From the IMG/VR virus record IMGVR_UViG_3300009537_000005: a DNA stretch of 64,000 nt; one strand, 5' to 3'. The notes beneath the pieces were generated by a model that searched no databases, was not told where the DNA came from, and saw nothing but the letters and a program-made list of their open reading frames with translations. The DNA comes from a virus. Below are positions 4,366-62,783 of the stretch, piece by piece; the first letter of the stretch is position 1, and every line of letters begins with the position of its first letter. A program made the position numbers and the translations under genes.

Positions 4366-4406
4366 TTGACAAATTTACATTTTGATCCCAAAATATATGT
4401 GCAGGG
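4366..4406 (+). promoter_or_regulatory. sigma70-like promoter of family TTGACAAA-N17-CAAAATATA; drives the tRNA/Y RNA array
   Basis: cTTGACAaatttacattttgaTCCCAAAATATAtg; the same 40-nt architecture recurs at 11665, 38232(-), 51676(-) and 58940(-). Confidence 0.6.
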
Positions 4407-4478: not shown

Positions 4479-4550
4479 GCAGGGCTGATCTAACTGGAAT
4501 GAGCATTGTCTCCAAAACAATGAATCCTCGTTCGAATCGAGGGCCCTGTG
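4479..4550 (+). tRNA. tRNA-Trp (anticodon CCA)
   Basis: Acceptor GCAGGGC/GCCCTGT, anticodon arm ATTGT-CTCCAAA-ACAAT, T-arm CCTCG-TTCGAAT-CGAGG; weak D-stem. Confidence 0.6.
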
Positions 4551-4555
4551 CTTAT

Positions 4556-4626
4556 AGGCGTGTCGTCTAATGGCAAGACGCGAAGCTGTTAACTTCGTTA
4601 TCTAGGTTCGAGTCCTAGCGTGCCTG
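4556..4626 (+). tRNA. tRNA-Asn (GTT)
   Basis: Acceptor AGGCGTG/CGTGCCT, anticodon arm CGAAG-CTGTTAA-CTTCG, T-arm CTAGG-TTCGAGT-CCTAG. Confidence 0.7.
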
Positions 4627-4632
4627 CCTAAT

Positions 4633-4755
4633 GTGAGCCGAAGGGTCGTGGGTTATCATATCAGAAACGTAAAAGTCGCCTCTCGGGGTGAACATACGAA
4701 GGCAGGAGCCGTGATGCCCGGCCATCTCCCATCCCATTCCTTGCTCGCATAACTT
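4633..4755 (+). ncRNA. Y RNA-like ncRNA A (Ro60-binding-type helix; 3' end abuts tRNA-Ala)
   Basis: 5' box GAGCCGAAGGGTCGTGGGTTATCAT pairs with 3' box CCTTGCTC to give GAGC-[C bulge]-GA / UU-GCUC; a pyrimidine tract CCATCTCCCATCCCATTCC precedes the 3' strand; compare human Y RNA 5' GGUCCGAAGGUAGUGAGUUAUC. Confidence 0.65.
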
Positions 4756-4827
4756 GGGGAATTCATATTAACGGGAGTATGCCTCGTTTGCACCGAGGTC
4801 GTGTGGGTTCGAGTCCCTCATTCTCCA
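4756..4827 (+). tRNA. tRNA-Ala (TGC)
   Basis: Acceptor GGGGAAT/ATTCTCC, anticodon arm CCTCG-TTTGCAC-CGAGG, T-loop TTCGAGT; atypical D-arm. Confidence 0.55.
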
Positions 4828-4947
4828 CCTAGCCCGAGTGACGACGGTCACGAGCATATGCCGGGCAAGGTATTCGTCTCTAGCCGCAAATCGAGACGCC
4901 GCTGCGGAAACTGACCTGCCCCGTAGACGCGGTTTGTTAAGGTCCAC

Positions 4948-5019
4948 GCCCCTCTGGTGAAATGGATATCACTCGTGGCTTCGAACCACGCGTTGCGCGT
5001 TCAAGTCGTGCGGGGGGTG
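4948..5019 (+). tRNA. tRNA-Arg (TCG)
   Basis: Acceptor GCCCCTC/GGGGGGT (G-U pairs), D GTGA-loop-TCAC, anticodon arm CGTGG-CTTCGAA-CCACG, T-loop TTCAAGT. Confidence 0.65.
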
Positions 5020-5087
5020 CCTAATCGGGTCGGGGACATAGCGTTACCTGGCTAAAGTCCGCTGTGTCACAAACTTATCCGAAACAT

Positions 5088-5159
5088 GCCGATATAGCTC
5101 AGATGTAGAGCAGTCGCCTTGTAAGCGACAGTGCGTGGACTCGAGAACCACTATCGGCC
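5088..5159 (+). tRNA. tRNA-Thr (TGT) with a non-canonical T-loop
   Basis: Acceptor GCCGATA/TATCGGC, D GCTC-AGATGTA-GAGC, anticodon arm GTCGC-CTTGTAA-GCGAC; T-loop reads CTCGAGA instead of TTCRAAT. Confidence 0.55.
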
Positions 5160-5162
5160 CCA

Positions 5163-5234
5163 GCGGGCTTGGTGTTAGCAGTAGCACGACGGCCTTCCAA
5201 GCCGCAAGGACGAGTGCGAATCTCGTAGCCCGCT
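5163..5234 (+). tRNA. tRNA-Gly (TCC)
   Basis: Perfect acceptor GCGGGCT/AGCCCGC, anticodon loop CTTCCAA, T-arm ACGAG-TGCGAAT-CTCGT. Confidence 0.7.
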
Positions 5235-5363
5235 CTTAAGCAGAATTAGTTTATCTTAGTAAAACGGAGCCTTGCCAAGGCTCAGTGCGGGGAGCATGGC
5301 CCCGATTCTGCTCCTAAGATACTGTCTGAACAGGAGGTTCGAACCCTCCCAGCAGTATCTCAG

Positions 5364-5434
5364 TGCCTCTTAGTCTAGCGGCAGGACTGCGGTCTTTGGA
5401 ACCGTAAGGCGTGGTTCGAATCCACGAGAGGCAT
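5364..5434 (+). tRNA. tRNA-Gln (TTG)
   Basis: U1-A72 acceptor TGCCTCT/AGAGGCA (bacterial Gln-like), anticodon arm GCGGT-CTTTGGA-ACCGT, T-arm CGTGG-TTCGAAT-CCACG. Confidence 0.75.
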
Positions 5435-5437
5435 CCT

Positions 5438-5566
5438 ATGGTTTGGAACAGTCCTTTTGGTACGATTTATATCTCGCCCGACGTATATTTCGTTCTACTC
5501 GTCGTATGGTTATCTTTGCTTGTATATGGTGGAATGTACATCATGGGAGTGTTCGAAGATAAATAA
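5438..5566 (+). CDS. hypothetical 42-aa hydrophobic peptide (MVWNSPFGTIYISPDVYFVLLVVWLSLLVYGGMYIMGVFEDK) between tRNAs
   Basis: Uninterrupted ATG..TAA frame filling the gap between the two tRNA-Gln genes; predicted single TM helix; below the ORF-track size cutoff. Confidence 0.25.
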   Translation: MVWNSPFGTIYISPDVYFVLLVVWLSLLVYGGMYIMGVFEDK

Positions 5567-5639
5567 TCAGGGACGGTGTAATAGGTTGCACGTCCGGCTC
5601 TGAACCGGAAGATTGCAGGTTCGATCCCTGCTCCCTGAT
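5567..5639 (+). tRNA. tRNA-Gln (CTG)
   Basis: U1-A72 acceptor TCAGGGA/TCCCTGA, anticodon arm TCCGG-CTCTGAA-CCGGA, T-arm GCAGG-TTCGATC-CCTGC. Confidence 0.75.
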
Positions 5640-5718
5640 CCTAGAGACACACAACGGACAAGGCTAGAGGCCGCCGAAGGCGGGTGGGTAGCGAGTGGTT
5701 GACCAGTGTCTCTAACAA

Positions 5719-5791
5719 GCCGCTGTAAGATAAAGGACAGTCGCCAATGCTTCTAACATTGGGAGTGGTGGTTCGAATCCATCCAGCGGTG
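5719..5791 (+). tRNA. tRNA-Arg (TCT)
   Basis: Acceptor GCCGCTG/CAGCGGT, anticodon arm CAATG-CTTCTAA-CATTG, T-arm GGTGG-TTCGAAT-CCATC. Confidence 0.65.
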
Positions 5792-5793
5792 CC

Positions 5794-6025
5794 TATATCG
5801 GGGATTGGGAAAGTCTAGCTAATCCGCTCGCCTTGGACGCGAGAGATCGCTGGGGCAGAGCCAGCATCCCCGACCTAGCCCCCACCGGTACCAGTGAGGG
5901 GTGAGCCTAGTTTCGAGGCCAACTATTCTGTGGCTCAACACAATGTTGGTCCCTGCCTTGAGCAAGTAGGCTAGGCAAATGAAACCCGCCCGGCTGTAGC
6001 GTATGCGAAATTCGCCGGGCAATAC
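5794..6025 (+). ncRNA. unassigned structured spacer in the tRNA array (candidate ncRNA)
   Basis: 232 nt with no tRNA fold; nested inverted repeats (GGGGAT..ATCCCC; GCCCGGC-19nt-GCCGGGC); the overlapping minus-strand ORF 5819..6037 has no support. Confidence 0.25.
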
Positions 6026-6107
6026 GGAAGCGCCCAAAGGAGCGGTACGCGGTCTTGAAAACCGTGAGATGTGAAAGCATGTGGGAGTTCGAGTCTCTCC
6101 GCTTCCG
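6026..6107 (+). tRNA. tRNA-Ser (TGA), class II
   Basis: Acceptor GGAAGCG/CGCTTCC, anticodon arm GCGGT-CTTGAAA-ACCGT, long variable arm (about 18 nt), T-arm GGGAG-TTCGAGT-CTCTC. Confidence 0.75.
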
Positions 6108-6256
6108 CCTAAAGGGTCTATCTGCCCCGGCCCCTAGCTATGGGCACATAGCATAAGAGGTCGCATTCTAGAGGGGCTTGGATTGATCCTAGCCCGCTTC
6201 AAGAGATTGCACCATGTCAGAAAGGACAGAGAGCAAACCATTGGCGGGCTAAACGT

Positions 6257-6328
6257 GGGGATTGTAGTTTATGGAGTAAAACCCTGTCTGTGGAACAGGC
6301 GTAAAGGGTGCGAATCCCTTCAATCCTC
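6257..6328 (+). tRNA. tRNA-His (GTG) with encoded G-1
   Basis: Extra 5' G pairs with C73; acceptor GGGATTG/CAATCCT, anticodon arm CCTGT-CTGTGGA-ACAGG, T-arm AAGGG-TGCGAAT-CCCTT. Confidence 0.75.
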
Positions 6329-6334
6329 CCTCAT

Positions 6335-6406
6335 GTGCTTGTAGCTGAGACAGTCTAGCACTCGGTTGAAGCCCGAGAGACACTGGTGCAATTCCAGTCG
6401 AGCACA
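6335..6406 (+). tRNA. tRNA-Phe (GAA)
   Basis: Acceptor GTGCTTG/CGAGCAC, anticodon arm CTCGG-TTGAAGC-CCGAG, T-arm ACTGG-TGCAATT-CCAGT. Confidence 0.75.
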
Positions 6407-6411
6407 CCTAA

Positions 6412-6484
6412 GTCTCTGATGCGAATGGCAAGCGGACCACCTGCAAAGTGGTTACTAACGTGGGTTCGAATCCCACCAGAGACT
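6412..6484 (+). tRNA. tRNA-Cys (GCA)
   Basis: Acceptor GTCTCTG/CAGAGAC, anticodon arm ACCAC-CTGCAAA-GTGGT, T-arm GTGGG-TTCGAAT-CCCAC; 7-nt variable loop. Confidence 0.65.
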
Positions 6485-6505
6485 CCTTAAAACAAACGAA
6501 GAATT

Positions 6506-6577
6506 GGGTTTGTGGCGAAGTGGCATCGCACCAGCCTCTTAAGCTGTGAGTCGGTAGTTCGAATCTACCCAAGCCCA
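6506..6577 (+). tRNA. tRNA-Lys (CTT)
   Basis: Acceptor GGGTTTG/CAAGCCC, D GCGA-AGTGGCAT-CGC, anticodon loop CTCTTAA, T-arm GGTAG-TTCGAAT-CTACC. Confidence 0.7.
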
Positions 6578-6582
6578 CCTAT

Positions 6583-6663
6583 GCAGTTGTGGTGGAACGG
6601 CATACACGCTGGCCTCAAACCCCAGTGGGGAAACCCGTGCAGGTTCGACTCCTGTCAACTGCA
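6583..6663 (+). tRNA. tRNA-Leu (CAA), class II
   Basis: Acceptor GCAGTTG/CAACTGC, D GTGG-AACGGCAT-ACAC, anticodon loop CTCAAAC, 13-nt variable arm, T-arm GCAGG-TTCGACT-CCTGT. Confidence 0.65.
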
Positions 6664-6667
6664 CTAT

Positions 6668-6741
6668 GCAAGCGTGAAGGGAATGGCATACCTCGGTCAT
6701 TTAAAATGACTGGCTTGGTGGTTCGAGTCCACCCGCTTGTA
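6668..6741 (+). tRNA. tRNA with anticodon TAA (Leu codons UUR) but a short class-I variable loop
   Basis: Acceptor GCAAGCG/CGCTTGT, anticodon arm GGTCA-TTTAAAA-TGACT, 5-nt variable loop, T-arm GGTGG-TTCGAGT-CCACC. Confidence 0.55.
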
Positions 6742-6746
6742 CCTAT

Positions 6747-6821
6747 GCCCTCGTAGGAGAATTGGCATATCCGCACGGTTTAGGCCCGTGGTCAATAGTG
6801 GTTCGAATCCACTCGGGGGTA
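6747..6821 (+). tRNA. tRNA with anticodon TAG (Leu codons CUN) but a short class-I variable loop
   Basis: Acceptor GCCCTCG/CGGGGGT, anticodon arm CACGG-TTTAGGC-CCGTG, 6-nt variable loop, T-arm AGTGG-TTCGAAT-CCACT. Confidence 0.55.
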
Positions 6822-6890
6822 CCTTGTGTAAAGTAGTTTAGATTTTTCTTAACTCAAATCCATTTGAGTATAGTTTTCTTTACTCAACGC

Positions 6891-6965
6891 GCGCCGGTAG
6901 CTCCAATCGGTTAGAGCAGGAGTCTTTTAAACTCAAGGCTGGGGGTTCGAATCCCTCGCGGCGCA
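6891..6965 (+). tRNA. tRNA-Lys (TTT)
   Basis: D GCTC-loop-GAGC, anticodon loop CTTTTAA, T-arm GGGGG-TTCGAAT-CCCTC, acceptor GCGCCGG/GCGGCGC (7-66 mismatch). Confidence 0.65.
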
Positions 6966-6970
6966 CTCCT

Positions 6971-7044
6971 GCCATCATAGTCTAGTGGAAGGACGCAAGC
7001 CTTTCAAGCTTGAGGGCGGGGGTCAGTACCCCGTGATGGTACCA
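6971..7044 (+). tRNA. tRNA-Glu (TTC), CCA encoded
   Basis: Glu-like D-arm GTCTAGTGGAAGGAC, anticodon arm CAAGC-CTTTCAA-GCTTG, T-loop GTCAGTA (non-canonical), 3' TGATGGT-A-CCA. Confidence 0.65.
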
Positions 7045-7045
7045 T

Positions 7046-7117
7046 GCTCTTGTAGTCTAGTGGACAGGACGCTACCCTCTCAAGGTAGAAGCCGGGGTTC
7101 AACTCCCCGTGAGAGCA
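7046..7117 (+). tRNA. tRNA-Glu (CTC)
   Basis: GTCTAGTGGACAGGAC D-arm, anticodon arm TACCC-TCTCAAG? read as CTCTCAA loop (CTC), T-arm CGGGG-TTCAACT-CCCCG, acceptor GCTCTTG/TGAGAGC. Confidence 0.6.
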
Positions 7118-7359
7118 CCTAGGCACGGACCAACGCGGCGAAAGCCGAGGAAGCTCGGGACTACATAGGGCAACTCAGTACAGCCACAGAGACGAGTAAA
7201 GTGAAACGGGCCACGGCTGAGAGTTAGCAATCCCAAGTCGTGCGACAGTGACCCGCTGAGAAGCACAGGTAGGGAGCAGTCACTCGTAAAGAGGGACCGT
7301 CACTTAGTGGCGAGACAGATGTTGGTCGATAACAGAATCCCGGCTATAGTGCCTAACAC
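7118..7359 (+). ncRNA. unassigned 242-nt purine-rich structured spacer (candidate ncRNA)
   Basis: No tRNA fold and no ORF; GAAA-containing motifs (GCGGCGAAAGCCGAGG, GAGTAAAGTGAAACGGGCC); flanked by tRNA-Glu and tRNA-Ser. Confidence 0.2.
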
Positions 7360-7443
7360 GGATGGTTGGCAGAGAGGCTAATTGCACTCGGTTGCTAACC
7401 GAGCGGGGTAACACCCACATAGGTTCGAATCCTATACCATCCG
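7360..7443 (+). tRNA. tRNA-Ser (GCT), class II
   Basis: Perfect acceptor GGATGGT/ACCATCC, anticodon arm ACTCGG-TTGCTAA-CCGAG, long variable arm, T-arm ATAGG-TTCGAAT-CCTAT. Confidence 0.75.
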
Positions 7444-7463
7444 CCTGCGTTATCAAAAAGGCT

Positions 7464-7496
7464 AAAATTTCAAAATAACTTCTCTTTTTGGAGATA
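7464..7496 (+). promoter_or_regulatory. conserved upstream element (copy 2)
   Basis: AAAATTTCAAAATAACTTCTCTTTTTGGAGATA. Confidence 0.4.
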
Positions 7497-7498
7497 TA

Positions 7499-7726
7499 AT
7501 GTATGAAGTAAATATGTTTTATCCGGGCAAAGTCAGAAGTAATCTAGAAAAAGAATTTGACGATAAGATATACGGCCGTTGGGCATCCGGCTATAGCTTT
7601 GAAGATAATATCAGAGACATAGCGTTTAGCATTGAAACTCTAGACCTGGTACGAGATTTGATGGCCTACTTACCCTGTGACGGCTGGATTACGGTACGAC
7701 TGAGAGACGGAGTGGTAGAAGCATAA
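7499..7726 (+). CDS. hypothetical small protein embedded in the tRNA array
   Basis: ORF track; preceded by the conserved AAAATTTCAAAATA...CTTTTTGGAGA element plus SD. Confidence 0.35.
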   Translation: MYEVNMFYPGKVRSNLEKEFDDKIYGRWASGYSFEDNIRDIAFSIETLDLVRDLMAYLPCDGWITVRLRDGVVEA

Positions 7727-7736
7727 ATTACTACCC

Positions 7737-7770
7737 TAAAATTTCAAAATAGTCTCGCTTTTTCGGAGAG
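7737..7770 (+). promoter_or_regulatory. conserved upstream element (copy 3)
   Basis: AAAATTTCAAAATAGTCTCGCTTTTTCGGAGAG. Confidence 0.4.
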
Positions 7771-7776
7771 ATTTCC

Positions 7777-7980
7777 ATGCACAAGCAGAATAATCGTTGG
7801 ACTTGGAAAGAGTTTGGTAAGCGGATCAGCCCACACGCTGGATGGTTTAGTAGATGGAGACGTGGTGACGGGAGACTATGGAAAAAGAAGTTAAGTAAGG
7901 CGCGGAGACGAGCGTGGAAAGACCCACACCAACGGGGATTACTAAGTGTCGAGCGGGAATGTAATTGGAAGACATGGTAA
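7777..7980 (+). CDS. hypothetical basic (R/K/W-rich) small protein
   Basis: ORF track; preceded by a second copy of the same conserved upstream element. Confidence 0.35.
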   Translation: MHKQNNRWTWKEFGKRISPHAGWFSRWRRGDGRLWKKKLSKARRRAWKDPHQRGLLSVERECNWKTW

Positions 7981-8195
7981 TGCGTGGATTAGCATACAGA
8001 CGATATCAAATGGATCGTATCAAGAAGAAACGGGCCCACTACTGGGGTGGACACGCTGGTAGTGATCCAAGACTGTTGGGAATAGTTGCTAAAACACCAC
8101 ACCCTTGTAGTGGCTGGTGTTGTGGCAATCCACGGAAGCATTTTGGCGAGAAGACTCGTCAAGAAATAACATGGACGGCTGGCGATCTCGGTTGA
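7965..8195 (+). CDS. hypothetical small protein; 3' end would overlap tRNA-Ile
   Basis: ORF track; overlaps the 5' part of the tRNA called at 8173, so the true extent is uncertain. Confidence 0.2.
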   Translation: MEDMVMRGLAYRRYQMDRIKKKRAHYWGGHAGSDPRLLGIVAKTPHPCSGWCCGNPRKHFGEKTRQEITWTAGDLG

Positions 8196-8247
8196 ACGCG
8201 CTACTCTGATAAGGTAGTATAGGCAGGTTCGAATCCTGCGCCGTCTA
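8173..8247 (+). tRNA. tRNA-Ile (GAT)
   Basis: Acceptor GGACGGC/GCCGTCT, anticodon arm CTACT-CTGATAA-GGTAG, T-arm GCAGG-TTCGAAT-CCTGC. Confidence 0.65.
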
Positions 8248-8252
8248 CTTCT

Positions 8253-8326
8253 GGACTGGAAGCCAATTGGATTGAGGCATCACTCTTATAAGGTGAGTAT
8301 AGCTGGTTCGACTCCAGCCCGGTCTA
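8253..8326 (+). tRNA. tRNA with anticodon TAT (would read the AUA Ile codon)
   Basis: Acceptor GGACTGG/CCGGTCT, anticodon arm TCACT-CTTATAA-GGTGA, T-arm GCTGG-TTCGACT-CCAGC. Confidence 0.55.
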
Positions 8327-8331
8327 CCTAC

Positions 8332-8405
8332 GGCTTGGTAGCTCAATTGGATAGAGCGCCACACTGTCGATGTGGTGGTTGCGGGTTCAAGTCCCGTCCG
8401 AGTCG
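8332..8405 (+). tRNA. tRNA-Asp (GTC)
   Basis: D GCTC-AATTGGAT-AGAGC, anticodon arm CCACA-CTGTCGA-TGTGG, T-arm GCGGG-TTCAAGT-CCCGT. Confidence 0.7.
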
Positions 8406-8411
8406 CCTTTA

Positions 8412-8492
8412 TAGGGCCGAAGAGTAAGTGGGTTATCATACAGTTGACGTATACCTTCGGGTACTCCCACCCTCACAACTTGCCCTATACAT
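8412..8492 (+). ncRNA. Y RNA-like ncRNA B (short form; compensatory variant of the Ro60-binding helix)
   Basis: 5' box GGGCCGAAGAGTAAGTGGGTTATCAT pairs with 3' box CTCACAACTTGCCC to give GGGC-[C]-GA / UU-GCCC. The A-to-G change on the 5' strand is matched by T-to-C on the 3' strand relative to copies A, C and D. Internal GTACC-TTCG-GGTAC tetraloop hairpin; 3' end abuts tRNA-Val. Confidence 0.65.
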
Positions 8493-8566
8493 GCAGGCTT
8501 AGCTCAGTTGGATAGAGCACTTCTTTTACACAGAAGGTGTCGGGAGTTCGAGTCTCTCAGCCTGTA
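8493..8566 (+). tRNA. tRNA-Val (TAC)
   Basis: Acceptor GCAGGCT/AGCCTGT, D GCTC-AGTTGGAT-AGAGC, anticodon arm CTTCT-TTTACAC-AGAAG, T-arm GGGAG-TTCGAGT-CTCTC. Confidence 0.75.
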
Positions 8567-8573
8567 CCTATAT

Positions 8574-8741
8574 GTGAGCCGACGGTAACAGGGTTCTCGT
8601 CCTTATCAGGAGGAATTCTGAATGCGGGTAACCTGCTATAGTGGTTAAAGTGATGACTAGATCGGGCCCTTATGCTGGTCCGACAACGAAAACATTGCGG
8701 GTCTTGGACCTTCCCCTGGCCACAACTTGCTCACACAACAT
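8574..8741 (+). ncRNA. Y RNA-like ncRNA C (long form, about 168 nt)
   Basis: 5' box GAGCCGACGGTAACAGGGTTCTCGTCCTTATC and 3' box CCTTCCCCTGGCCACAACTTGCTCACACAACAT pair as GAGC-[C]-GA / UU-GCUC; 3' end abuts tRNA-Met. Confidence 0.55.
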
Positions 8742-8815
8742 GCCGAATAGGCCAATTGGATAGGCACCCGTCTCATTAACGGGGTTGTGTGGTTCGATTC
8801 CACAATTCGGTACCA
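8742..8815 (+). tRNA. tRNA-Met or Ile2 (CAT), CCA encoded
   Basis: Acceptor GCCGAAT/ATTCGGT-A-CCA, anticodon arm CCCGT-CTCATTA-ACGGG, T-arm TGTGG-TTCGATT-CCACA; no initiator signature. Confidence 0.7.
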
Positions 8816-8886
8816 CGCGGGGTTGAGGAGCGGCTCCTCCGTAGGCTCATAACCTACTCACGTCGGTTCGAATCCGACCCCCGCTA
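8816..8886 (+). tRNA. second CAT-anticodon tRNA (Met/fMet/Ile2 undetermined); starts directly after the CCA of the previous tRNA
   Basis: D GAGG-AGCGGCT-CCTC, anticodon arm GTAGG-CTCATAA-CCTAC (initiator-like loop sequence), T-arm GTCGG-TTCGAAT-CCGAC, acceptor CGCGGGG/CCCCGCT with a 1-72 mismatch. Confidence 0.5.
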
Positions 8887-8892
8887 CTTAGT

Positions 8893-9044
8893 ACGAGCCG
8901 ACGAGTAAGTGGGTTATCTTCTATCAAAAGAGAGGTCGTGAGTTCGAATCTCACCCCGTCTACCATAGACGGGTAGCTCAGTGGCAGAGCGCTGGCGAAA
9001 GCCTTCCCACTCTCATAACTTGCTCGTACAACATAACTCACAAT
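8893..9044 (+). ncRNA. Y RNA-like ncRNA D with a permuted tRNA-like domain (YrlA-type)
   Basis: 5' box GAGCCGACGAGTAAGTGGGTTATCTT; internal T-arm GTGAG-TTCGAAT-CTCAC; then CCCGTCT-ACCAT-AGACGGG (acceptor stem closed as a hairpin over a CCA-containing loop); then TA-GCTC-AGTGGCA-GAGC D-arm; then 3' box CCTTCCCACTCTCATAACTTGCTCGTACAACAT; followed by tRNA-Tyr. Confidence 0.7.
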
Positions 9045-9125
9045 GGCGGTGCGCCCGTGTGGGAACGGGGTCGGTCTGTAGAACCGATGGCATGCGCATA
9101 GGAAGTTCGATTCTTCACGCCGCCA
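9045..9125 (+). tRNA. tRNA-Tyr (GTA), class II
   Basis: Acceptor GGCGGTG/CGCCGCC, D CCCG-TGTGGGAA-CGGG, anticodon arm TCGGT-CTGTAGA-ACCGA, 12-nt variable arm, T-loop TTCGATT. Confidence 0.7.
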
Positions 9126-9182
9126 CCTAGACCAATTCGGGTCTATTATCCGAGTGGTTTTCTCCTCGGAAAGGAGGATTCA

Positions 9183-10826
9183 GTGACTTACACAAGGCAC
9201 TATAACGTACGAAAGACGCCACAGAACCAACCAATTCCGGGTAAGAACATGGTCGCCAACAGCGCTGGCGGTTTTGCGTTCGCCGTTGACGACTGGGCAC
9301 GTCTAAGACGTTTCTTAATTCTTGGCGCAGAAGGTGGTACATACTACATTGGCGAGAAGGAGCTAACAATCGGGAATGCCGAGGCTGTACTGCGTTGCAT
9401 CAAGGAAGATGGTATTGGTGTTGTTGACACGATTGTTGATGTCAGTAAGGGTGGTAGAGCACCAAAGAACGACCCTGCTCTATTTGCTTTAGCTATGTGT
9501 GCCGGATTAGGAAACGAAAACACGAAGCGCCATGCTCTTAACGCACTGCCAGAAGTAGCACGAATTGGTACTCACCTATTCACTTTCGCAGAGTACGTAC
9601 AAGCGTTTCGTGGCTGGGGACGGTCACTGCGCCGAGCCGTTGGTGAGTGGTACACAACCAAGGAACCAAAGCAACTAGCATACCAGCTAGTGAAGTATCA
9701 ACAGCGGAACGGTTGGTCACACCGTGACTTACTGCGACTATCTCACCCTAAGTCAGATGAGCACAACGTTCTGTTCAATTGGGTGACACAAGGACCGGGC
9801 GAAGGTACACACTTTGATTTGCCGGTAAATGAAGCCACTAGGTTAATTTACGCTTTCGAGAGGGCCAAGACAGCGGACGAAGCAGAGACTATTGAGTTGA
9901 TTATAGACTACGGTCTAACTCGTGAAATGATCCAGACAAAGCACCTAAACAGTGCGGATGTTTGGTTCGCTTTGCTACAGAACATGCCTATGACAGCTAT
10001 GATCCGGAACCTAGGCAAGATGACTCAGGTTGGGCTACTAGGTGACGGCCGATGGGACTCTAACAAGATTGTGCAGGACCGACTGCGAGACTCAGTGCGG
10101 TTGGCCAAGGCAAGAATTCACCCGCTGAATGTTTTAGTAGCTCTGAGAACCTACGATAGCGGTGGCGGATACCGAGGTAAGTTAGTCTGGAATCCGTCGC
10201 GAGACATTGTGAGCGCACTGAATGACGCTTTCTACCTGGCGTTCGATGGAGTATACCCAACAGGCAGGCGGTTTGTGTTGGGCGTGGACGTGAGCAGTAG
10301 CATGAGTGCTACGATAGGCAACACAGTGTTGTCTGCGGCAGAAGCCGCTGTGGCAATGGCGATGGTAATTCGACGAACGGAAGACCAAGCTATAATCCGA
10401 GGATTCGCTGGTGGCGAACGCCGGTATAGCGATCCCTTACAAGGTCCGAACTACGATGGTTTCATGGACTTAGGCATCAGTAGAGAGACACGACTAGAGT
10501 CAGCAATGGAACGGACACGAAACAAGAACTTCGGTCGGACAGACTGTGCTCTGCCTATGTTGTGGGCACTAAAGAACGAGGTCGAAGCTGACGTATTTTG
10601 TATTTTCACTGACTCAGAAACATGGGTAGGAAAAATTCACCCAGTACAGGCGCTACAACAGTACCGAGAAAAGATGAACATCCCGGCTAAGTTGATTGTT
10701 GTGGCGATGACAAGTAATGGCTTCAGCATCGCTGACCCAAACGATGGGGGCATGCTAGACGTGGTGGGATTTGATACATCAATTCCGCAAGTGATGGCGG
10801 ACTTCATTGGGATATCAGGCCCCTAA
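9183..10826 (+). CDS. rsr: Ro60/Rsr orthologue (TROVE domain plus C-terminal vWA domain with a MIDAS motif)
   Basis: N-terminal WARLRRFLILGAEGGTYYIGEKELTIGNAEAVLRCIKEDG...PALFALAMCAG matches Ro60 (human ...[39 protein letters not shown]...PMLFALA); C-terminal VLGVDVSSSMSA is a DxSxS MIDAS motif; GTG start after GGAAAGGAGG. Confidence 0.9.
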   Translation: MTYTRHYNVRKTPQNQPIPGKNMVANSAGGFAFAVDDWARLRRFLILGAEGGTYYIGEKELTIGNAEAVLRCIKEDGIGVVDTIVDVSKGGRAPKNDPALFALAMCAGLGNENTKRHALNALPEVARIGTHLFTFAEYVQAFRGWGRSLRRAVGEWYTTKEPKQLAYQLVKYQQRNGWSHRDLLRLSHPKSDEHNVLFNWVTQGPGEGTHFDLPVNEATRLIYAFERAKTADEAETIELIIDYGLTREMIQTKHLNSADVWFALLQNMPMTAMIRNLGKMTQVGLLGDGRWDSNKIVQDRLRDSVRLAKARIHPLNVLVALRTYDSGGGYRGKLVWNPSRDIVSALNDAFYLAFDGVYPTGRRFVLGVDVSSSMSATIGNTVLSAAEAAVAMAMVIRRTEDQAIIRGFAGGERRYSDPLQGPNYDGFMDLGISRETRLESAMERTRNKNFGRTDCALPMLWALKNEVEADVFCIFTDSETWVGKIHPVQALQQYREKMNIPAKLIVVAMTSNGFSIADPNDGGMLDVVGFDTSIPQVMADFIGISGP

Positions 10827-62595: not shown

Positions 62596-62668
62596 GTCCT
62601 CTTAGTCTAGAGGTCTAGGACACCGACTTCTCAGGTCGGGAACGTAGGTTCGAATCCTACAGAGGACA
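62596..62668 (+). tRNA. tRNA-Glu (CTC), isolated copy
   Basis: GTCCTCT-TA-GTCTAGAGGTCTAGGAC D-arm closely resembles bacterial tRNA-Glu; anticodon arm CCGAC-TTCTCAG-GTCGG; T-arm GTAGG-TTCGAAT-CCTAC. Confidence 0.65.
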
Positions 62669-62783
62669 CCTAGCCGTCCCGTCGGCCAGTGGCCCTACGC
62701 TGGCAGAAGTAGGCAGAAGCTAAATACCCAGTCAACCACGGGAGAAGACTGGTTTCTTCTCACTACGTCTGAAAGGAAAGAAC

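Follow-up and report, generated by a model that had tools for sequence, protein, structure and literature searches.

The third of three long spacers in a phage tRNA array encodes, judging from its sequence and predicted fold, a miniature bacterial type-A RNase P RNA of 236 nt (7120-7355, + strand). The array belongs to a 64,000-nt stretch of viral DNA (IMG/VR record IMGVR_UViG_3300009537_000005; hereafter the window), identified as phage by the terminase large subunit, major head protein and primase/helicase that it encodes. The tRNA genes occupy 4479-9127 on the + strand. A promoter-like site (TTGACA-17-CAAAAT, 4366-4394, +) lies upstream and a terminator-like hairpin with a T-run (9135-9155, +) follows the last tRNA, both being consensus matches only; no promoters or terminators were found inside the spacers. 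The three long gaps pointed out in an earlier note on this DNA (5794-6025, 6108-6256 and 7118-7359) were confirmed on the + strand, with lengths of 232, 149 and 242 nt. They are mutually unrelated and represent three different things, all non-coding. In the joint reading that we consider likely, spacer 3 is a type-A-derived RNase P RNA that probably processes the array, spacer 1 contains a remodelled tRNA-Pro and, after it, one flank of an insertion, and spacer 2 is the other flank followed by a conserved hairpin.

The earlier note had proposed an Rfam/Infernal scan with RNase P among the models, and this was the right check, as it identified spacer 3 as an RNase P RNA homologue. The bacterial type-A model RF00010 was matched end to end (49.4 bits, model positions 1-367, E 1.4e-14 to 3.2e-12) and was the best-scoring family of its Rfam clan for this spacer. 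The RNase P-like RNA fills the entire spacer between tRNA-Glu(CUC) with its CC and tRNA-Ser(GCU), which has an ACAC leader. The RF00010 gathering score of 100 bits was reached neither by the window RNA nor by a homologue from contig L162 (66.2 bits), and the model reported no match in L148, L151 or LR756501 even at E<=0.1 to 1.

The elements retained are P1-P3, the P4 pseudoknot with its bulged U, the P6 pseudoknot, P15-P17 with the GGU, and P18, all on the + strand. In the constrained fold, the 5' strands of P1 (7120-7126) and P2 (7128-7134) precede the P3 hairpin (7136-7139/7144-7147, GAAA loop; the segment spans 7120-7147), and their partner strands lie at 7349-7355 and 7321-7327, respectively. 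The GAAA-containing purine-rich motifs that had been noticed at 7140-7200 are indeed present, at 7140-7207. CR-I (7148-7173) consists of AGGA, the 5' strand of P4 (7152-7154, bulged U7155, 7156-7160), CUACA and the 5' strand of P6 (G7168-G7170), as supported by the RF00010 consensus GAGGAAAGUCCGGGCUCCAUAGGGCA and the P4/P6 pairing tables. The opposite side of P4 is found at 7313-7348, which comprises J18/2 AGACAGAU, the 3' strand of P2, and CR-V with ACAGAA and the P4 3' strand (7338-7345); P4, formed by CR-I and CR-V, pairs AGC-U-CGGGA with UCCCG-GCU and has the conserved bulged U. Between them, 7222-7275 contains J5/15 AGUUAGCAA, P15 (7231-7234/7272-7275), P16 (7240-7243/7263-7266), P17 (7246-7249/7255-7258) and the 3' strand of P6 (C7252-C7254). 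The P6 pseudoknot, GGG/CCC in the window, joins J5/7 with the P17 loop, which is the arrangement of type A and not of type B. The L15 GGU (7268-7270) lies within AGGUAGGGA at 7267-7275, and such a GGU in the P15 internal loop is typical of type A. P18 (7279-7285/7291-7297, loop GUAAA) is followed by a second hairpin (7298-7303/7307-7312), the two spanning 7279-7312; both occur with different sequences in L148 and L151, and are missing from the L162 and L181-type RNAs. The core sequences J3/4 GAGGAA, J5/15 GCAA and CR-V ACAGAA..GGCUA are present in the Rfam alignment and form invariant columns in the hand alignment described below.

The specificity domain has shrunk from about 150 nt to 48 nt, with 30 and 81 model positions deleted in the Rfam alignment. 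In place of a complete domain (P7-P14 with CR-II/CR-III), a single stem CUCAG/CUGAG (7174-7178/7217-7221) remains around 38 nt, the remnant as a whole occupying 7174-7221 (+). This stem covaries, and its interior, which ranges from 19 to about 150 nt among relatives, holds in the window an ACAGAGA that resembles J11/12 of type A.

A search model (R1) made from the single spacer 3 sequence was used to find homologues. It located them just upstream of tRNA-Ser(GCU), in the syntenic array position, in the relatives L148 and L151, which had been found independently via their Rsr protein homologues (73% and 64% identity). Further homologues were detected in L162, L168, L177, L181 and at least 14 other IMG/VR contigs of 50-476 kb. 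The viral homologues are 180-340 nt in size and extend to more than 20 further contigs, many of them in or beside tRNA arrays on the same strand; one version of about 190 nt lies in L355 at 9913-10101. R1 also scored 40 bits in the GenBank huge phage LR756501 (735 kb), and the 635-kb phage LR745206 was matched by BLAST. No RNase P-like RNA was seen at the other Rsr-anchored loci from IMG/VR (30) and JGI metagenomes (80), where Rsr identity was <=54%. A canonical CR-I pattern applied to IMG/VR retrieved RNase P RNAs of ordinary length; many sat at the ends of contigs and probably belong to host flanks. Like cellular RNase P RNAs, they had a size of about 340 nt (267-353 nt when counted from CR-I to CR-V) and not the mini form. 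Similarly, among the first 100 loci listed for a 'mini' pattern in GTDB genomes, every RNase P RNA was cellular and about 340 nt long. We found no published account of a phage RNase P RNA in open-access papers or bioRxiv. The phage itself is uncultured.

Two alignments were examined for covariation. The first contained 7 sequences and was built by hand with the structure in mind, N-padded and with inserts trimmed, as MAFFT misaligned the core helices; the second contained 22 sequences fitted by the model. Both therefore lean towards the structure. In the hand alignment 94.7% of cells pair (31-39% with slid partners), with both-side changes in 44 of 66 pairs (4-10 when slid). In the model alignment 91.8% of cells pair (37-43% slid), with both-side changes in 49 of 54 pairs (18-22 slid). 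None of 500 shuffles reached the observed values in either case. P1, P2 and P3 show both-side changes at most positions among relatives. In the table of P4, P6 and GGU, which covers 21 of the 22 sequences (L330 was left out), P4 with its invariant bulged U pairs in 21/21 sequences despite at least 10 strand variants. The GGU is likewise kept in 21/21, while P15 covaries. P6 changes on both strands as well, the variants in relatives including CAACC/GGUUG, CCGCC/GGCGG, CUGCU/AGCAG, GAACC/GGUUC and AAACC/GGUUU.

This conservation pattern contradicts the idea that spacer 3 is merely a functionless, decaying fragment of a host rnpB picked up by chance. The sub-threshold Rfam score and the large deletions relative to cellular RNase P RNAs would fit such a fragment. 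However, homologues occur in at least 20 divergent phage contigs and hold a syntenic position in relatives, compensatory changes preserve pairing in every helix and both pseudoknots, and the normal-sized CR-I matches and cellular RNAs do not have this form. We thus regard a chance fragment as very improbable.

As for function, we infer that the spacer 3 RNA is co-transcribed with the roughly 30 phage tRNAs as one unit and would be released by tRNA processing at both borders, in which case its own 3' end would be generated when RNase P cuts at the 5' end of tRNA-Ser(GCU). It would most likely be the catalytic subunit that frees the tRNA-array transcript of its 5' leaders, and perhaps the Y RNAs nearby have their tRNA-like modules trimmed in the same way. 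The L15 GGU is predicted to pair with C74/C75 of tRNA precursors. CC directly follows the discriminator in 20 of the 27 Rfam-detected tRNA genes, and in two more it follows once an offset of the Rfam end is considered; such CC-encoding genes fit a GGU-dependent enzyme. Because no RnpA is detectable in the phage, the protein partner is probably the host RnpA. A phmmer search of all 779 window ORFs with E. coli and B. subtilis RnpA as queries gave a best E of 0.96. The small ORFs that adjoin the RNase P-like RNA, as possible protein cofactors, had no Pfam match; those after the RNA differ between the window and L148 and match no family.

P8, P9, P13 and P14 are absent and the specificity domain, which normally recognises the tRNA elbow, is nearly gone; hence activity cannot be assumed. 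The same loss, together with that of several tertiary-contact helices, would suit a catalytically dead decoy that retains RnpA- and tRNA-binding surfaces, sequesters host RnpA or pre-tRNAs and skews host tRNA maturation. The failure to find a phage RnpA among the window ORFs points in this direction too, and there is a viral precedent of an expressed RNase P-like RNA without detectable activity (PMC3001073). Yet the strictest conservation falls on the catalytic elements, namely the P4 bulged U, J3/4 AGGAA, ACAGAA, J5/15 GCAA and the L15 GGU, and the recurrent location within phage tRNA arrays suits a processing enzyme better than a host inhibitor. Moreover, archaeal type-T RNase P RNAs lacking the S-domain are active. 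A decoy therefore seems unlikely to us, and we incline, if only slightly, to the view that large and huge phages carry an unrecognised family of working RNase P ribozymes of about 180-240 nt, which would be nearly S-domain-free and the smallest natural ones of bacterial type.

Compared with known type-A RNase P RNA (E. coli M1 RNA; RF00010), the phage RNA shares P1-P2-P3, P4 with the bulged U, P6 with P16/P17, the P15 GGU, J5/15 GCAA, J18/2 and P18. Unlike it, the phage RNA has 236 nt instead of about 350-400 nt, a P3 of only 4 bp, P10-P12 shrunk to one stem with a 38-nt interior in addition to the missing helices, and an extra hairpin after P18; it is also phage-encoded within a tRNA array and scores 49 bits against the gathering score of 100. 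The archaeal type-T RNAs (Pyrobaculum/Thermoproteaceae, about 200 nt) have retained the catalytic domain but almost nothing of the specificity domain. Phage RNAs of 180-230 nt may be seen as their bacterial-type parallel, but differ in ancestry, which is archaeal type A for type T and bacterial type A for the phage RNA. In addition, the P15 GGU loop of bacteria, kept in the phage RNA, is missing from type T, whose partners are archaeal proteins.

Thermoproteaceae are mentioned in PMC8172020, where reduced RNase P RNAs of CPR bacteria and Mycoplasma fermentans, which have small genomes, are described with sub-threshold Rfam scores and loss of P12, P13, P14 and P18. The phage RNA resembles these in being sub-threshold in Rfam, but they are the sole enzyme of their cells, and the phage RNAs are shorter and located in viral tRNA arrays. 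The CCA-binding motif is absent in two-thirds of the CPR RNAs (PMC8172020), while the GGU is always kept in the phage RNAs. Another virus-encoded example is the RNase P-like RNA of camelpox and other orthopoxviruses, which shows a loose structural likeness and no activity and for which a sequestering or skewing role was proposed (PMC3001073). In contrast, homology to RNase P RNA is clear for the phage RNAs in both sequence and structure, and their catalytic core is conserved. The T4 tRNA cluster encodes species 1 and 2, small non-tRNA RNAs that are released by tRNA processing and have no assigned function. The spacer 3 RNA is likewise a small non-tRNA RNA encoded in a phage tRNA cluster, but the T4 species do not resemble RNase P, and a GenBank phage BLAST revealed no sequence relation. 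The analogy to T4 small stable RNAs drawn in the earlier note holds for position only. YrlA-type Y RNAs share the array, with YrlA-like elements at about 8408-9044 and 4629-4755 and Rsr at 9183-10826, and YrlA of M. smegmatis is a substrate of RNase P (PMC4201824). The three spacers lack the YrlA features (a Ro-binding stem and a tRNA-like module); RF02553 matched only 8907-9015 and, weakly, 8300-8357, and none of the spacers, in line with the earlier remark that they have no Y RNA boxes.

Spacer 1 begins with a predicted, structurally remodelled tRNA-Pro(UGG) at 5799-5875 (+), which was detected by the mitochondrial mode of ARAGORN alone and could be aligned to its canonical counterpart in L148. 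It has four stems and a UGG anticodon loop; the D arm is remodelled, but the acceptor, anticodon and T stems are unimpaired. In the T loop, GGCAGAG takes the place of UUCGAAU, and there is no GG in the D loop; because the D-loop GG and the T-loop UUC are both missing, the canonical cloverleaf elbow cannot form. This impossible elbow, together with the failure of the Rfam tRNA model (RF00005, no match even at E<=10) and of default ARAGORN to detect the gene, is what a tRNA-Pro pseudogene would show. On the other side, all four stems pair, the anticodon loop is preserved, compensatory changes distinguish the anticodon and D stems from those of L148, and 5799-5875 is the sole tRNA-Pro candidate in an otherwise nearly complete tRNA set. 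A pseudogene is accordingly a real possibility, though we think it the less probable one, and a working, if atypical, tRNA-Pro is preferred.

The tRNA which the earlier note placed at 6026-6107 (+) lies between what is left of spacer 1 and the initial 80 nt of spacer 2. This tRNA is real: Rfam and relaxed ARAGORN identified it as tRNA-Ser(UGA) with a long variable arm, which default ARAGORN missed. It lies within a block of about 314 nt bounded by CCTAGCCC at 5874-5881 and 6188-6195, a sequence present as a single copy in L148. An insertion of this block would have brought tRNA-Ser(UGA) to its present position, with 5876-6025 and 6110-6187 (both +) as its upstream and downstream flanks. The upstream flank contains three ordinary hairpins (z=-1.9) and gave no Rfam match at E<=10; the downstream flank is equally unremarkable (z=-1.55 for 6107-6190). 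Neither flank is conserved in L148, the single relative on which all calls of conservation in spacers 1 and 2 rest.

The 3' end of spacer 2 is a strongly conserved hairpin (6188-6257, +) with its stem at 6191-6197/6244-6250, a GAAA-type apex and two internal loops that contain ACCA. It ends 6 nt ahead of G-1 (6257) of tRNA-His. The segment 6190-6253 folds with z=-5.06, and 0 of 200 shuffles fold as well. It is 87% identical to L148 5171-5240, with two compensatory pairs. Other copies were found neither by a model (R2) in 1.5 Mb of fetched loci nor by an exact-pattern scan of IMG/VR. The ACCA loops and the GNRA apex suggested an SRP-like RNA, a reading that was rejected since there was no Rfam SRP match. 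The hairpin, of about 60 nt, forms the leader of tRNA-His and may serve in processing or in binding a protein.

The earlier note had regarded each spacer as a candidate additional ncRNA, either a stable RNA like those of T4-type tRNA clusters or an intron or homing-endonuclease remnant. For spacer 3 and the 3' 60 nt of spacer 2 the ncRNA proposal stands. It fails for the first third of spacer 1, which is the overlooked atypical tRNA-Pro, and for the two flanks, which are not conserved in the closest relative and not unusually stable. The location of the spacers inside the tRNA transcription unit, their hairpins and their freedom from ORFs would agree with stable RNAs throughout, and a second conserved hairpin at 5642-5718 (z=-3.75) shows that such elements exist in the array. 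Nevertheless, 5876-6025 and 6107-6190 have no similarity in L148 and ordinary folding scores, and they are better explained as the flanks of a relocated tRNA-Ser cassette with CCTAGCCC boundary repeats. No Rfam intron or other family matched the non-tRNA sequence of spacers 1 and 2 at E<=10 (5790-6262). The spacers hold only short mechanical ORFs, as had been claimed, without Pfam matches at E<=1 on either strand, HNH, GIY-YIG and LAGLIDADG included. Intron or homing-endonuclease remnants are thus unsupported, and that all three spacers are of either kind is improbable in our judgement. A GenBank phage BLAST with 5700-7460 returned tRNA matches only. Signals for a tmRNA, whether one-piece or two-piece, in the first two spacers were low-threshold ARAGORN noise with no Rfam match. 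The inverted repeats reported in the earlier note are present with coordinates one base off, at 5988-5994/6014-6020 (GCCCGGC/GCCGGGC) and 6191-6197/6244-6250 (AGCCCGC/GCGGGCT), and structure beyond chance was borne out for 6190-6253 but not for the flanks. Nor do gaps of 3-25 nt prevail along the whole array: at least 8 other spacers exceed 60 nt, and these contain Y-RNA-like elements, small ORFs and the additional conserved hairpin.

RNase P counts as a universal ribozyme of cells, and tRNA-bearing phages have been assumed to depend on the host copy. Standard Rfam thresholds miss the phage RNAs, which would explain why even the 735-kb phage genome was published with no such annotation, and surveys have consequently reported huge phages with 'only tRNAs and tmRNA'. 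If our reading is true, a ribozyme would join the known phage translation genes (tRNAs, tmRNA, aminoacyl-tRNA synthetases and ribosomal proteins), and maturation of the tRNA array would be independent of, or additive to, the host ribozyme. The phage RNAs would also be a natural test of the minimal size of bacterial-type RNase P, with P4, P6, P15 and the GGU kept and the S-domain almost gone. As they are short, their synthesis is feasible, and the standard M1 RNA cleavage and rnpB complementation assays are applicable. Since similar RNAs occur in many large phages, some phages seem to carry their own tRNA-processing ribozyme.

An Rfam/Infernal scan, as suggested in the earlier note, matched 7120-7359 of the + strand, within a long spacer of the tRNA array (spacer 3, 7118-7359), to the whole model (positions 1-367) of bacterial type-A RNase P RNA, RF00010. 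The score of 49.4 bits falls below the curated threshold of 100 bits, with E=1.4e-14 in the local search and 3.2e-12 over the whole 64-kb window. In the Rfam alignment CR-I reads GAGGAAGCUCGGGACUACAUAGGGCA (consensus GAGGAAAGUCCGGGCUCCAUAGGGCA) and CR-V reads ACAGAAUCCCGGCUA, and J5/15 GCAA, the L15 motif GGUAGGG and J18/2 are also present. A constrained fold gave P1 (7120-7126/7349-7355), P2 (7128-7134/7321-7327), P3 (4 bp with a GAAA loop), P15, P16, P17, and P18 plus an extra hairpin, all on the + strand. P4 is formed by AGC-U-CGGGA and UCCCG-GCU, its bulged uridine occupying the same position as in E. coli. Of the specificity domain, the RNA lacks about 110 model positions and keeps a 48-nt stem-loop (7174-7221). 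The RNA fills the spacer exactly, since it begins right after the CC trailing tRNA-Glu(CUC) and ends 4 nt upstream of tRNA-Ser(GCU). It should be mentioned that a second, isolated tRNA-Glu(CUC) lies at 62596-62670, 53 kb from the array.

Relatives were sought through the Rsr protein, whose homologues in a large protein collection (73% and 64% identity) led to two phage contigs, L148 (73.7 kb, ENA, with the same gene order as the window) and L151. R1, a covariance model built from the window's RNase P RNA alone, matched both at the syntenic site, directly 5' of tRNA-Ser(GCU). The L148 RNA reaches about 414 nt because of a P3 insert of about 110-120 nt; in L151, a hairpin inserted between P2 and CR-V brings the RNA to about 316 nt. 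The P3 insert (L148 6899-7008), with its acceptor-like stem and canonical T arm CGGGGUUCAAAUCCCCG, is a predicted tRNA-like module inside the ribozyme.

Further relatives came from scanning IMG/VR by pattern and then applying R1. A 75-kb contig (L162) carries an RNase P RNA scoring 66 bits against RF00010, and its array also holds a 280-nt tmRNA (1678-1957). At L162 4271-4474, the place of the specificity domain is taken by about 150 nt, within which lies a 67-aa ORF that has a Shine-Dalgarno sequence and a zinc-ribbon-like, Cys-rich motif. RNAs of about 190 nt were found in contigs of 476, 40 and 385 kb (L168, L177 and L181, respectively), and at least 14 more, of 182-231 nt, in contigs of 50-210 kb, several of them inside or adjoining same-strand tRNA arrays. 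With two relatives as queries, BLAST uncovered copies lacking annotation in huge-phage genomes, LR756501/LR756503 (735 kb) and LR745206 (635 kb). The 223-nt LR756501 copy (6002-6224 of L376, i.e. LR756501.1 175316-187535) scored 40 bits with R1, had no RF00010 match even at E<=1, and has a same-strand tRNA array 4.3 kb upstream; the GenBank record of this 735-kb genome is without any annotation. As controls, IMG/VR matches to the canonical CR-I motif were normal-size RNase P RNAs, many at contig ends, with a CR-I to CR-V distance of 267-353 nt versus 184 nt in the window, and bacterial and archaeal matches to the 'mini' pattern were, among those listed, RNase P RNAs of the ordinary kind, about 340 nt long.

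Conservation of the structure was evaluated in two alignments. In the hand-made alignment of seven sequences (inserts trimmed, both pseudoknots included), 94.7% of cells were paired versus 31-39% when partners were slid, and 44 of 66 pairs had changed on both sides versus 4-10. The automatic R1 alignment of 22 sequences gave 91.8% versus 37-43%, and 49 of 54 pairs versus 18-22. In each case 0/500 shuffles reached the observed value. Because one alignment was hand-built and the other fitted by R1, both are biased towards structure, a bias limited by the slid-partner controls and by sequence anchors flanking each helix. P4 pairs in 21/21 tabulated sequences with an invariant bulged U and at least 10 different strand sequences. 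In nearly all of them the 5-mers of the P6 pseudoknot complement each other (for example CAACC/GGUUG, CCGCC/GGCGG, CUGCU/AGCAG, GAACC/GGUUC and AAACC/GGUUU), and GGU is present in every one. Spacer 3 holds a conserved, miniaturised, phage-borne RNase P RNA, one of a wider family that lacks annotation. Full-text searches of open-access papers and bioRxiv turned up no account of an RNase P RNA encoded by a phage. The closest prior descriptions are the reduced RNase P RNAs of CPR bacteria (PMC8172020), in a study that by Rfam saw megaphages with only tRNAs and a tmRNA, the RNase P-like RNA of camelpox (PMC3001073), and Y RNAs bearing tRNA-like modules cleavable by RNase P (PMC4201824).

The window encodes a large terminase, a major head protein, a primase/helicase, a family-A DNA polymerase and a RecA-like protein and is a phage genome fragment, with no DNA-level similarity to GenBank phages outside the tRNAs. 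Its array of about 30 tRNA genes (4479-9127, + strand) ends just 5' of the Rsr/Ro60 gene (9183-10826), which directly follows. By consensus match only, the upstream border carries a promoter-like site at 4366-4394 and the downstream border a terminator-like site at 9135-9155, and the same search found neither within the three long spacers. Default ARAGORN missed tRNA-Thr(UGU) (5088-5159), tRNA-Gly(UCC) (5163-5234) and tRNA-Ser(UGA) (6026-6107), which were recovered by Rfam or relaxed ARAGORN, the last by both.

Several other elements were observed in the array. Four Y-RNA-like elements (4629-4755, 8408-8492, 8569-8741 and 8888-9044) lie near the Rsr/Ro60 gene and share 5' GUGAGCCGA..GGGUUAUC and 3' ..CUUGCUC; only 8907-9015 matched Rfam YrlA, at 43 bits, below threshold. 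The spacer between tRNA-Gln(CUG) and tRNA-Arg(UCU) (5642-5718) is a second conserved structured spacer (fold z=-3.75), with segments 86-91% identical to L148 4791-4911. Other spacers of 66-118 nt lie at 4830-4947, 5022-5087 and 6824-6890, the last AT-rich with a direct repeat TTACTCAA/TTAACTCAA. A 28-nt motif, CTAAAATTTCAAAATA..CT.TTTTT, occurs at 7462-7489 and 7736-7763, each copy 5' of GGAGA and the start codon of a small ORF (two ORFs), and may be a phage promoter or translation signal.

The earlier note had taken spacer 3 and two others, spacer 1 (5794-6025) and spacer 2 (6108-6256), for candidate additional ncRNAs. All three are present as described, as is the tRNA separating the first two, tRNA-Ser(UGA). 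They hold no plausible ORF, only short mechanical ORFs overlapping them with no Pfam match at E<=1. The quoted inverted repeats exist one base away, at 5988-5994/6014-6020 and 6191-6197/6244-6250. In spacer 1, the ARAGORN mitochondrial model called a tRNA-Pro(UGG) at 5799-5875 whose alignment to the canonical L148 tRNA-Pro runs base for base: little or nothing differs in the acceptor and T stems, and the anticodon stem shows compensatory changes. Its D arm is rebuilt, its T loop reads GGCAGAG versus UGCGAAU, and the Rfam tRNA model gave no match even at E<=10, so that it may be a pseudogene. As it is the sole proline tRNA candidate in the array, we lean towards an unusual yet functional tRNA-Pro.

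The remaining 150 nt of spacer 1 (5876-6025; three unexceptional hairpins, z=-1.9, without an Rfam match) and the first ~80 nt of spacer 2 (6110-6187; unremarkable fold, z=-1.55) found no counterpart in L148, where tRNA-Pro is directly followed by CCTAGCCCG... and the hairpin 5' of tRNA-His. The window has two copies of CCTAGCCC (5874-5881 and 6188-6195), which bracket 5876-6025, tRNA-Ser(UGA) and 6110-6187; the two segments are best read as flanks of a putative relocated tRNA-Ser cassette of ~314 nt. The last 70 nt (6188-6257) form a hairpin (z=-5.06; 0/200 shuffles fold as well) with a GAAA-type apex and two ACCA-containing internal loops, ending 6 nt upstream of G-1 of tRNA-His. It is 87% identical to L148 5171-5240 (adjacent tRNA-His/Phe region, ~74%), with compensatory change at two stem positions. 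Neither R2, a model of this hairpin run on 1.5 Mb of retrieved loci, nor a search of IMG/VR for its exact pattern turned up a further copy. A role in tRNA-His leader processing or protein binding is speculation. The observation is confirmed and its interpretation partly supported: an RNase P RNA is conserved in related phages and one hairpin in L148, and the rest reads as a remodelled tRNA and insertion flanks.

As for the protein partner, an RNR-motif search for RnpA gave nothing in a real ORF, and phmmer reached a best E=0.96 among all 779 window ORFs when queried with the RnpA sequences of E. coli and B. subtilis. Because no RnpA homologue was found in the window, host RnpA is the likely partner. 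Just 3' of the RNase P RNA and tRNA-Ser lie two small, very basic ORFs, 7777-7980 (67 aa, pI 11.8) and 7974-8183 (69 aa, pI 10.3, CxxWCC motif), with no family match, including in a Pfam search of the small neighbouring ORFs, and no conservation or counterpart in L148.

CC directly follows the discriminator in 20/27 Rfam-detected tRNAs of the window, and in two more after an offset of the Rfam end. The usual trailer is CCU(A), most often CCUA. Because CC and then U(A) trails most genes, they encode CC but leave out the terminal A of CCA; CCUA serves as punctuation between array tRNAs. CC at tRNA positions 74-75 is the pairing target of the GGU loop. A dead decoy titrating RnpA or pre-tRNA is possible, and the inactive viral RNase P-like RNA of camelpox offers a precedent (PMC3001073). 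Conservation is strictest in features needed for catalysis and tRNA 3'-end binding; since, in addition, most of the tRNA genes encode CC, we think that the RNase P RNA probably serves as an active catalytic subunit in maturing the transcript of the phage's own array, in which cleavage at tRNA-Ser(GCU) would also create the RNA's own 3' end.
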